Part shown: piece after piece, positions 34,498-64,000 of the stretch
Layout of the letters: every line of letters starts with the position of its first letter
How positions within the stretch are numbered: position 1 is the stretch's first letter
IMG/VR virus record: IMGVR_UViG_3300030372_002245
Span: 568 to 64,567 of that record
From: a virus
Taxonomy: Duplodnaviria; Caudoviricetes
DNA: 64,000 nucleotides
Reading direction: 5' to 3' (one strand)
The notes under the pieces: model-generated
The model's input: the letters and a program-made list of their open reading frames with translations, nothing else
Told to the model about the DNA's origin: nothing
Database searches by the model: none
Made by a program: the position numbers and the translations under genes

Positions 34498-34866
34498 ATG
34501 CAGACTCAAACTGTTGGCTCTACGAAAAGAGCACCTGCGAGGAAGGTTTCTAAGAAGCCTCTGAGCAAAGCAAAAGTCACTGCAGTGCCAAAACCTATGA
34601 GCAAAGGGCGAGGAGCCGCCAGAACTTTATACAAGTTCAACGGTAAGACCCCTGAGCAAAAAGGTTTTACACCGCAGATGTATGCGCTGATTCAAACTGC
34701 AGACGAAGCTAAAAAGAAGGAGCTTGACTCCTCTAGCTTCACTGCACAGGATCTAGTGGCATTAGCCGTGAAGAACGGTACTTTGACGACAGGTCAGGAT
34801 CCGCTAAGAATCTTTAGATTCTACGCGAAGAGACTTGTTGAAGAAGGCTACTTCAGCAAAGTGTGA
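34498..34866 (+). CDS. Basic putative DNA-binding protein, paralog family A copy 1
   Basis: Own promoter and RBS; PQM...L.T.Q.P.RI..FY.KRL..EG shared with 44067. Confidence 0.75.
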   Translation: MQTQTVGSTKRAPARKVSKKPLSKAKVTAVPKPMSKGRGAARTLYKFNGKTPEQKGFTPQMYALIQTADEAKKKELDSSSFTAQDLVALAVKNGTLTTGQDPLRIFRFYAKRLVEEGYFSKV

Positions 34867-34870
34867 CTTT

Positions 34871-35130
34871 GCACATTGATAAGGTGTGCTACTAAGCGAT
34901 TAGTACAGGATGGCACTTAAAGGAAAACTCCTGTTGGATGGGTTTATAAGCATCCTATAAACAACGCCTTATCGAGTCCAGAAGCTAAGTTGGACTATAA
35001 ATATAATAGCAAAGAAGCAGTTGGTAGTCTGCTATATCAAAACTACCAGTAGCCAGTGCGAGGGTTGATAGGGAAATTAGCAGTTAATGAACTATCCTTA
35101 AATGTTAATCCAACTGCCCACTGGCTACCA
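34871..35130 (+). ncRNA. Candidate large structured RNA (multi-stem, pseudoknotted)
   Basis: No ORF of 60 aa or more; two 10-bp long-range stems, a GNRA hairpin and two H-type pseudoknot pairings found by eye. Confidence 0.55.
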
Positions 35131-35160
35131 CTAAATCTCAGCTTCAATTAGGAGACCAAT

Positions 35161-62340: not shown

Positions 62341-64000
62341 ATGGCAACTTATGTAAATAATTTAAGACTTAAAGAAATCACTACTGGAGATGAGTCGGGA
62401 ACGTGGGGGACAAGTACCAACACGAATCTCGAGTTGATTGGGGAAGCACTTGGTATAGGCACTGAAGCCATAACTACCAATGCAGATACACATTCAACTA
62501 TTGTAGCAGATGGTCAAGCTGATGCAGGCAGAGCCATGTATCTTAAATACACTGGTGCTTTGGATTCGGATTGTACGATTACAATTACTCCAAACACCAT
62601 GAAACGAGTCCAAATTATAGAAAATGCTACTACAGACTCAGGTAGCTCAGGACCATATAACATAATTATTTCACAAGGTTCTGGAGCAAATGTAACGATT
62701 GCCAATGGTAAGGTAGCAATAGTACAACTCGATGGTGCTGGTTCTGGAGCAGCAGTATTGGATGTTTTGACTGATCTACAAGTTACAGATACTTTATCGG
62801 TTAATGGAACAACCATAACACTTGGTGATGGAACAGCAGAAGATACAAAACTTGTATTCGATGGTAATGCACAAGATTTTTATGTTGGGTTGGATGATTC
62901 AGCCGATGATTTACTTATTGGTTTAGGTTCAACAGTGGGCACTACACCAATTATTTCTGTCGATGAGAACAAAGATGTAGCGATCCCAGATGGCGGATTA
63001 ACCATTACGACAAGCGATAATACCGATCAGCTTTCTCTTGTTTCAACGGATGCTGATGCAGCAGTTGGTCCAAACATTAGAATGTATAGAAACTCAGGCT
63101 CACCAGCAGATAACGATTACATAGGTGAAATACAGTTTGAAGGCAGAAACGATAACTCTCAAGATGTAATTTATGCTGGGATTGCATCGAGGATTGTCGA
63201 TGCTTCCGATGGCACAGAAGATGGTCGTTTCGAGCTTTACACCATTTTAGCTGGTGCGCAAAATTCTAGAGTTCTTGCTAATAGCACAGAAACAGTTCTA
63301 AACGAAGACTCAGTAGATTTAGATTTCAGAGTCGAGAGCAACGGCAATGCCAATATGCTTTTTGTTGATGGCGGTAATGATCGGCTTGGAATCGGTGGGA
63401 ATAGTCCTGATTGTTTAGTAGAAATAACTGGTGCGCATACTTCTAGTATCGGAATGTTGCATTTAGATTCAACAGACCACGCATTTATCGCTTTAGATGC
63501 TGCTGGTGCAACCAACGATAAAGGTATTTACTTTCAAGAAGCTGGAACTTCTCAAGTTATAATAGACCACGATGGTTCAGCCAATCAGTTAAGAATACAC
63601 GATGGTTCTTCTACTCATATGGTTATCACTGATGCTGGACTTGTTGGAATCGGCACTACAAGTCCGAGTACCAATCTACATGTTTATTCAACAGCAGACA
63701 ACGCACCACATCTTCTTTTAGAAAATTACCAAAACGCTGACACAGACGATGCTGCAGTTATTGAGTTGTACTTAAACGATCAAACAACAGGTGGCATTGG
63801 CGATGATACAGATGTTGGTGTTATCCGATTTACAGGTGATGAAAAAGATTCTGGAGGAAAAGAAACTTATGCAGAGATAAGAGGTGTTGCACACGATCCC
63901 GGAAGCGGTTCAAGTAATAAAGGTCATATATCTTTCTTTGTTCAAGCTGCTGGTGATTTAAATGAAACACTTACACTAGATGAAGCAAAAGTTGGCATAA
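62341..64000 (+). CDS. Tail fibre protein, 3'-partial (not in ORF track)
   Basis: GGAG RBS; MATYVNNLRLKEITTGDESGTWG N-terminal anchor; VGIG repeats; frame runs off the window end (...AKVGI). Confidence 0.85.
   Translation, partial: MATYVNNLRLKEITTGDESGTWGTSTNTNLELIGEALGIGTEAITTNADTHSTIVADGQADAGRAMYLKYTGALDSDCTITITPNTMKRVQIIENATTDSGSSGPYNIIISQGSGANVTIANGKVAIVQLDGAGSGAAVLDVLTDLQVTDTLSVNGTTITLGDGTAEDTKLVFDGNAQDFYVGLDDSADDLLIGLGSTVGTTPIISVDENKDVAIPDGGLTITTSDNTDQLSLVSTDADAAVGPNIRMYRNSGSPADNDYIGEIQFEGRNDNSQDVIYAGIASRIVDASDGTEDGRFELYTILAGAQNSRVLANSTETVLNEDSVDLDFRVESNGNANMLFVDGGNDRLGIGGNSPDCLVEITGAHTSSIGMLHLDSTDHAFIALDAAGATNDKGIYFQEAGTSQVIIDHDGSANQLRIHDGSSTHMVITDAGLVGIGTTSPSTNLHVYSTADNAPHLLLENYQNADTDDAAVIELYLNDQTTGGIGDDTDVGVIRFTGDEKDSGGKETYAEIRGVAHDPGSGSSNKGHISFFVQAAGDLNETLTLDEAKVGI

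Follow-up and report, generated by a model that had tools for sequence, protein, structure and literature searches.

What kind of RNA, one molecule or several, is carried by the 294-nt structured gap (34867-35160) that lies between two plus-strand genes of an uncultured marine phage? The window analyzed here, a stretch of 64,000 nt, is nearly the whole of a 64.6-kb IMG/VR virus record, and contains tailed-phage genes for portal, major head protein, DNA polymerase, primase and helicases. An initial annotation, made from the letters alone, had described in this gap a single functional RNA of ~260 nt with long-range stems and two pseudoknots, belonging to no class that it could name, and possibly a scaffold, a ribozyme or a switch. 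All the pairings that it listed are present where it had placed them; it is their grouping into one molecule that does not hold.

Genomic setting of the spacer

The gap is bordered by the following genes, both taken from the list of open reading frames:

34498-34866, plus strand: upstream gene, 122 aa, conserved; the modules described below begin after its stop codon
35161-35409, plus strand: downstream gene, 82 aa, hydrophobic, conserved, with its own ribosome-binding site ahead

Neither gene matched any Pfam or PHROG family. Homologues of the upstream gene were found in 72 viral loci at 57-97% identity, and those of the downstream gene in 7 loci. The gap that follows the homologue of the 122-aa gene is short (~50-80 nt) in 47 of these 72 relatives; in the others it spans 135-411 nt. 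The only reading frames listed within the gap are two of 31 and 34 codons over its last segment (module D, see below), and we rejected a coding role because both are gone in relatives that do not have this segment. A scan of the plus strand of the gap for promoters and terminators returned nothing convincing.

A probable tandem of independent modules

The comparison with related loci indicates that the spacer is very probably a tandem of four self-contained RNA modules, which we call A, B, C and D. Each is closed by its own stem or is itself a knot, and would therefore fold independently of its neighbours:

34878-34973, plus strand: module A (covariance model R1, 83 bits at the window copy)
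34975-34996, plus strand: module B, a hairpin with a 6-bp stem (34975-80/34991-96) and a 10-nt loop
35016-35048, plus strand: module C, a compact H-type pseudoknot of 32 nt (covariance model R2, 60 bits)
35049-35128, plus strand: module D (covariance model R3, 82 bits)

On comparative sequence grounds, A, C and D are three separate covarying and sequence-conserved families, placed in sense orientation between genes of uncultured marine phages. Compensatory changes in stems and pseudoknots are seen in all three, and the substitution patterns indicate that the structure is under selection at the RNA level on the plus strand, the only strand on which G.U pairs are kept. The functional RNA initially proposed is borne out in the sense of a selected structure, with homologues and covariation on the plus strand.

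The modular organization is apparent from the way in which different parts of the gap match different relatives. Gap bases 13-106 match L024/L025, and also L066/L067 at another location; bases 107-277 match L003; and bases 183-262 match L030, L050, L071 and L072. When the gaps are set side by side they appear as bead-like units between constant flanks: A alone (L048), D alone (L050), A and then D (L071), or another A followed by B, C and then a different unit (L049). Modules are exchanged exactly at their closing stems, as in L002/L003, where an unrelated unit (E) replaces A with identical borders, and as in the presence or absence of D. The D-less site was found in L049 and in RNA-library contigs, and comparison of the empty site of L049 with the filled site of the window reveals an 82-nt insert with the 6-nt word CTACCA on both sides. 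In the window, the models of A, C and D each give a single copy.

Contigs from four RNA libraries also carry sequence of the gap, as assemblies that preserve neither ends nor strand and in which DNA carry-over is possible. Regions that these contigs leave uncovered carry no information. In three of them, from three runs, module C has different neighbours, and each breaks at 35048, immediately before D. One contig shows no difference from the window over a stretch that starts within the upstream gene and covers A and B, with A uncut, which would be weakly compatible with co-transcription of the gene and these two modules.

We rejected the reading of the gap as one large RNA because its parts also occur separately or differently ordered, at other loci as well as in other phage lineages, and because relatives and RNA-library contigs break at the borders of the modules. 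The alternative folds that had been suggested from the repeated words AGCAGTT and CTACCA are likewise not conserved and reflect a chance juxtaposition of modules in this genome: CTACCA is repeated because it is the microhomology at the insertion point of D, and AGCAGTT because the word belongs to two different modules. Folding energy, which had been proposed as a check, is lower for the whole gap than in dinucleotide shuffles (z = -2.58), but nearly equally so on the opposite strand (-2.40). Calculated by module, z is -2.76 for A, -2.51 for B, -1.12 for C (nested fold only, the knot not being modelled) and -3.47 for D. The predicted energies thus lend moderate support to structure.

Module A

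Module A is a branched fold with a pseudoknot, and comprises the following elements:

34878-85/34966-73, plus strand: P1, 8 bp, ending in a U.G wobble
34886-89/34913-16, plus strand: pseudoknot of the strand after P1 with the P2 loop
34890-34905, plus strand: GNRA-capped hairpin in the linker
34906-10/34929-33, plus strand: P2, covaries
34936-40/34951-55, plus strand: P3, covaries
34917-22 and 34956-65, plus strand: conserved single strands

The long stem initially drawn at 34878-87/34964-73 is kept by the family in its outer 8 pairs, whereas its inner two bases belong to the pseudoknot, which had been overlooked. Among the hairpins placed inside this stem, P2 and P3 covary, but the GNRA hairpin is only an optional insert of one subfamily, found only in the window, L024, L138, L118, L091 and L066-type copies.

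Covariance model R1, built from 11 copies of A, matches 71 copies in viral contigs, representing 51 distinct sequences, and further, more divergent copies are present in loci that were retrieved for other purposes. Over the 51 distinct sequences and the 21 pairs of the model, 95% of cells are paired, against 36-45% with slid partners, and double changes occur at 16 of the 21 pairs. The covariation score is 0.50 versus 0.135 in shuffled alignments, none of 500 shuffles reaching 0.50. The pseudoknot is paired in 100% of the distinct sequences and all four of its pairs covary. P1 varies freely in sequence (26 octamers), and its inner end in the family is always G-C, G-C, U.G, with U.G in 50 of 51 copies. 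Since this U.G and many other G.U pairs are kept, the structure fits the plus strand only. P3 ranges from 17 to more than 140 nt. The window copy has the G-C, G-C, U.G end of P1, the 4-bp pseudoknot and UUAAA in the P2 loop, as well as the conserved strand of AUAUGAACAAC type that precedes the 3' half of P1 in the family.

All copies of A are intergenic and nearly all are co-oriented with the flanking genes. A ribosome-binding site and start codon lie within 50 nt past A in 47 of 56 distinct contexts, at a median of 23 nt, and the distance from the end of P1 to the start codon is 15-46 nt in most contexts. A U-run begins within 4 nt after P1 in half of the contexts (28/56), compared with 5% at random positions; the window copy has neither a U-run nor a ribosome-binding site directly after it. 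Pairing of P1 with the next ribosome-binding site in the manner of an anti-Shine-Dalgarno, judged by eye, is not consistent across the copies. A search for the A pattern in the genomes of 185,579 prokaryote species, with one genome per species, returned 7 hits, about as many as expected by chance, and none of these matched the covariance model.

In L130 (10547-10788, minus strand), and also in L082, L096 and L137, two copies of A stand in tandem with a 60-nt unit (H) between them. Tandem A arrays lie ~50 nt downstream of sigma-70-like promoters and would thus form the 5' end of the transcripts.

Modules B and C

Module B, the hairpin AGTCCA/TGGACT of the initial annotation, is present as drawn. 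Apart from a few close relatives, only L180/L183 carry it, and the copies differ by a single U.G change and one altered loop; with so few relatives and so few changes it is weakly supported.

Module C is composed of two interlocked stems and a long third loop:

35017-20/35029-32, plus strand: S1, 4 bp
35023-27/35043-47, plus strand: S2, 5 bp
35033-42, plus strand: third loop, A-rich, 10 nt

The family has a constant layout, with a 4-bp S1, UU, a 5-bp S2, U, and an A-rich third loop of 7-19 nt, to which the window copy conforms. The exact pattern was found in 39 viral loci, and a pattern in which the three middle bases of S2 and their partners were left free was found in 47. Exact complementarity is kept in 11 of the 12 non-canonical hits, which bring three new pair sets, and a fourth S2 pair set occurs in L131. 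Because the complementarity of S2 is kept in alternative pair sets, the pseudoknot of C is real, and the H-type fold initially proposed here is confirmed by covariation. A ribosome-binding site and start codon are present within 77 nt past C in 25 of 46 distinct contexts, and in 23 of these 25 the distance is 18-35 nt. The genes that follow are unrelated to each other, and the spacer in between is usually AU-rich.

The core of the window copy (35018-35027) consists of the 10 bases CAGTTGGTAG, and most copies of C end in ...CTACCA. We take CAGTTGGTAG to be a common tRNA D-arm sequence, and an origin of module C from a tRNA fragment is possible; ARAGORN reported no tRNA at this module. Elsewhere in the window, at 63056-63074, the model of C gives a weak match (14.9 bits, E = 0.7) that is most likely due to chance.

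Module D

The elements of module D are the following:

35049-58/35119-28, plus strand: P1, 10 bp, covaries
35062-66/35107-11, plus strand: P2, with one G.U, covaries
35067-71/35092-96, plus strand: P3, covaries
35080-85/35112-17, plus strand: pseudoknot of the P3 loop (20 nt) with the strand after P2

We found D in 21 distinct contexts in viral and metagenome contigs, with an invariant core of ~60 nt. P1 occurs in at least seven sequences, all of which stay complementary. P2 is G-C in 14 copies, A-U in 4, and in the G.U intermediate state in 3, the window among these, while P3 has two compensatory states. A further arm, P4, takes the form of one of four unrelated hairpins; it is missing in the window, L003 and the divergent L178/L153. 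The window copy thus has the features of the family, namely P1, P2, P3, a 20-nt loop pairing past P2, and a variable P4.

The pseudoknot is invariant in all 21 contexts, and a wider pattern with the knot bases left free gave only invariant copies. A covariance-model search retrieved the divergent lineage L178/L153, in which two of the six pseudoknot pairs are changed on both sides; these double changes, from one lineage only, support the pseudoknot of D. The 10-bp stem with the inner helix and loop pairing proposed in the initial annotation is supported, P1, P2 and P3 by covariation and the knot by these changes in one lineage. In L178/L153, D lies directly before C, the opposite of the order in the window.

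Two further features of D copies are worth recording. The 3' strand of the knot in the window (35110-35117) is complementary to 8 bases of module C (35017-35024), against 6 in D's own loop; such pairing between modules is possible only where C and D adjoin, and is not conserved elsewhere. The D copy of L198 (minus strand, ~579-659) is a chimera whose 5' and 3' flanks are of different P1 types, so that P1 cannot form, and this suggests recombination inside the conserved core of D.

Swapping, stacking and nesting in other phages

Besides these modules, diverse marine phages carry at least five further types, in varying combinations, in the space that separates a stop codon from the following ribosome-binding site. 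Units E, F, G and H (60 nt), a mini-module K (28 nt) and one common P3 arm recur elsewhere, often beside A, C or D; H recurs in 13 loci adjoining A or D. Modules are swapped at identical borders, added side by side, or nested in hairpin loops. Nesting is seen in L208, in which a complete D core lies within the P3 arm of A, the same arm being empty in L142. K is found at the tip of D's P4 (L030, L071, L140-L145) and also alone in a hairpin of the primase slot (L216, L217, L236, L287), which means that even sub-arms are exchanged.

This primase slot, upstream of the primase gene of podoviruses, offered 57 distinct versions for comparison; the primase of these uncultured podoviruses shares 45-50% identity with its counterparts in Pelagibacter and Roseobacter phages. 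The same closing stem is occupied there by a plain 12-bp hairpin, by a hairpin with K, or by A with at least six different P3 arms, and distant podovirus relatives have a GC hairpin with a U-run. In two A copies at this slot, those of L227 and L238, the P2 loop holds an additional hairpin of ~30 nt after the conserved UUAAAG, and the remaining fold is intact.

A motif (T)ATCTCC(A/T) is present ~20-45 nt before the primase slot in L213-L291 (locus positions ~1050-1180). It is kept in most podovirus lineages, including the distant ones with a terminator-like hairpin, and could be where a phage promoter ends, or else a processing signal.

Searches against known RNA classes and elements

None of the 4227 covariance models of Rfam 15 had a hit above its gathering threshold in the window or in 20 related loci, in agreement with the initial annotation, which could assign the RNA to no class. 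Relaxing the threshold to E values up to 10 gave only chance-level hits, and none for module C searched alone (49 nt). Among these, a Y RNA (RF00019), a class with a long terminal stem and the Ro-binding helix, was rejected, as the match has 15.7 bits (E = 2.6) against a threshold of 38 bits and lies on the minus strand over D, the RNA of which is on the plus strand. Models of pistol, twister, hammerhead, hatchet and HDV-like ribozymes match neither A nor D, even at E up to 10, and no known ribozyme was found in the 20 related loci. ARAGORN reported 0 tRNA, tmRNA or tRNA-like genes in the window.

Two further candidates could be discarded. For module C, a preQ1-I aptamer was rejected because the 49 nt have no Rfam PreQ1 match at E up to 10, and because starts lie 18-35 nt past the knot and before unrelated genes. 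A MITE-like DNA transposon was also rejected, given that the closing stems covary, the orientation is always sense, there is a single copy per genome, and only one 6-nt microhomology is present. As to an intrinsic terminator, the scanner reported none on the plus strand of the gap; half of the A copies at other loci have a U-run right after P1, but P1 closes a branched fold, and in the window no U-run comes after it. Finally, blastn of the locus and of A plus D against 50,697 cultured phage records gave no match. We regard A, C and D as new, uncatalogued RNA families, as defined by their alignments, which match no Rfam 15 model; they may be among 8,495 unnamed candidates from IMG/VR (PMC10690425).

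Possible functions

As to the scaffold, ribozyme or switch suggested at first, we found in the modules no expression platform, no gene-specific association and no sign of cleavage. We tentatively favour, at somewhat less than even odds, a role of the modules as portable cis-acting boundary or leader elements that stabilise or punctuate polycistronic early phage mRNA. Compact triplex-rich folds would take the place of the ordinary intercistronic hairpin, would shield from host RNases the 3' terminus of the preceding message as well as the 5' terminus of the following one, might attenuate transcription in some contexts, and would spread between phages by recombination. We infer this role because the modules occupy the slots of intercistronic hairpins, near a stop codon and the next ribosome-binding site, and because unrelated folds interchange there without being tied to a gene family. 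Compact knots with A-rich strands would moreover be of the kind of fold that resists nucleases, by analogy with xrRNAs (PMC11702639). Several considerations temper the boundary or leader role. In the window, neither a U-run nor a ribosome-binding site comes after A. As a plain hairpin suffices for protection, the invariant unpaired bases of A and D point rather to catalysis or to the binding of a ligand or protein; and as the modules are single-copy, most gene boundaries of this genome manage without them. That close relatives carry them only sporadically would suit neutral or selfish passengers as well.

The invariant unpaired bases of A and D, which a boundary role does not explain, keep three other readings alive. 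Selfish passengers of no benefit to the phage, whose compact fold lets the host hairpin still close after loop insertion or recombination, are in our view somewhat unlikely: the strictly sense and intergenic placement, the compensatory changes in internal stems and pseudoknots together with G.U pairs on one strand, which amount to selection at the RNA level, and the single copy per genome with no transposase, terminal-repeat signature or consistent target duplication all speak against them, even though presence or absence differs between near-identical genomes, cores are near-identical across very different phages while closing stems are local, one loop of A harbours D and other inserts lie in A's P2 loop, the insertion of D in the window is marked by the 6-nt CTACCA microhomology, and the chimeric D of L198 persists without P1. 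Rather unlikely, to our mind, is that A, D or both represent novel classes of small ribozymes, self-cleaving (or cleaving-ligating), which process the polycistronic message at gene boundaries. Their compact P1-closed folds with a pseudoknot and ~25-60 invariant core bases, around which peripheral stems vary or are replaced, are those expected of such RNAs, and pistol likewise pairs a hairpin loop with a junction strand; A and D have, however, a strand order unlike that of pistol, HDV-like and twister ribozymes, which we count against this reading together with the negative Rfam searches (E up to 10), the lack of known ribozymes in the 20 related loci and, weakly, as it is an assembly, the RNA-library contig that passes uncut through A. 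The clustering of several unrelated motif classes in one phage spacer would again suit ribozymes, since hammerhead, twister and pistol have been reported in association with phage genes and with each other (PMC4604425).

A sensor or operator function, in which the modules would be small-molecule aptamers or sites for phage or host proteins that control translation or termination of the next gene, we likewise hold to be rather improbable. P1 sequences differ freely (26 octamers), downstream genes are unrelated, other modules separate A and C of the window from the next gene, there is no conserved alternative pairing with a ribosome-binding site or terminator, and no Rfam riboswitch matches; against this stand the aptamer-like P1 that closes a conserved junction and pseudoknot, its end at 15-46 nt before the start in most A contexts, half of which have a U-run right after, and the design of C, which is like those of preQ1-I and of the T4 gene 32 leader (PMC10690425). 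It is quite unlikely that A and D, and perhaps others, are new catalytic RNAs that both process messages and insert themselves into hairpin loops of RNAs or genomes, although a chemistry of cleavage and ligation would account at once for portability, nesting and invariant cores. Very unlikely, lastly, is an action in trans of excised modules, which might for instance serve as decoys for host RNases, for toxins or for defence proteins that sense RNA: they are stable scaffolds that display highly conserved loops, but neither a promoter nor a terminator belongs to them, they lack the tandem repeats of type III antitoxins, and no protein gene is associated with them.

Whichever function applies, A, C and D are candidates for new ribozyme, aptamer or nuclease-resistant folds, two of them with covarying pseudoknots and large invariant cores. 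The more unusual part is their behaviour, as unrelated folds interchange at one slot, stack in any order and nest in loops, which suggests that marine phages draw gene-boundary parts from a common pool of plug-in RNAs. If this is true, a layer of phage gene control and of genome mosaicism would have been overlooked by protein-centred annotation, and synthetic biology would find in the pool a natural supply of RNA insulators that work independently of context.

Comparison with known systems

Bacterial BOX, REP/BIME and Correia elements are transcribed, hairpin-forming modular intergenic elements, and some insertion sequences target their loops; they are high-copy per genome and consist of simple palindromes or terminal inverted repeats, without covarying pseudoknot cores. 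The modules resemble them in being modular, intergenic and hairpin-forming, but differ by their covarying pseudoknot cores and by their single copy in this genome.

Module C is similar to the preQ1-I aptamer and to luteovirus-type frameshift knots, as an H-type knot of ~32 nt with a 2-nt first loop and with an A-rich third loop that could occupy the S1 groove. Unlike these, C has a 1-nt second loop, the ribosome-binding site is outside the knot, and it is not within a reading frame. In most of its contexts C also recalls the T4 gene 32 operator (PMC10690425), with a 5' pseudoknot, an AU-rich unstructured spacer and a ribosome-binding site; however, that operator is tied to one gene, coding for the single-strand DNA-binding protein, whereas C precedes unrelated genes and has no sequence likeness to it. 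With the xrRNAs of RNA viruses (PMC11702639), the modules share a compact junction with a pseudoknot, nuclease resistance being the role that we propose for the modules as well. The xrRNAs block eukaryotic 5'-3' exonucleases, while bacterial hosts use other RNases, and the likeness would be one of general fold.

Similar in setting are the twister, hammerhead, pistol and hatchet ribozymes clustered with phage genes (PMC4604425), which also have 50-100 nt, a closing stem, pseudoknots and tens of invariant bases, and of which different classes likewise adjoin each other in spacers of phages and metagenomes; the modules nevertheless match no Rfam ribozyme model and differ from these ribozymes in strand order. 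A survey of IMG/VR has described 8,495 covarying csRNAs, many of them no more than 25 nt upstream of phage genes (PMC10690425). These are of the same source and the same kind of object as A, C and D, but modular stacking, swapping and nesting are not described there.

In behaviour, the closest described system is that of the PeSL cassettes of T4-type phages, which consist of a sigma-70 promoter and a plain terminator hairpin and are present in many copies per genome (PMC2839356). Like PeSL, the modules are small conserved non-coding phage cassettes located between small early genes, common to several genomes and marking modular exchange (PMC2839356). They differ in being promoterless and in having complex pseudoknots and invariant cores, and in belonging to several unrelated families, each single-copy here. 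What is new here is the set of three uncatalogued covarying RNA families, together with their capacity to be stacked, swapped and nested.
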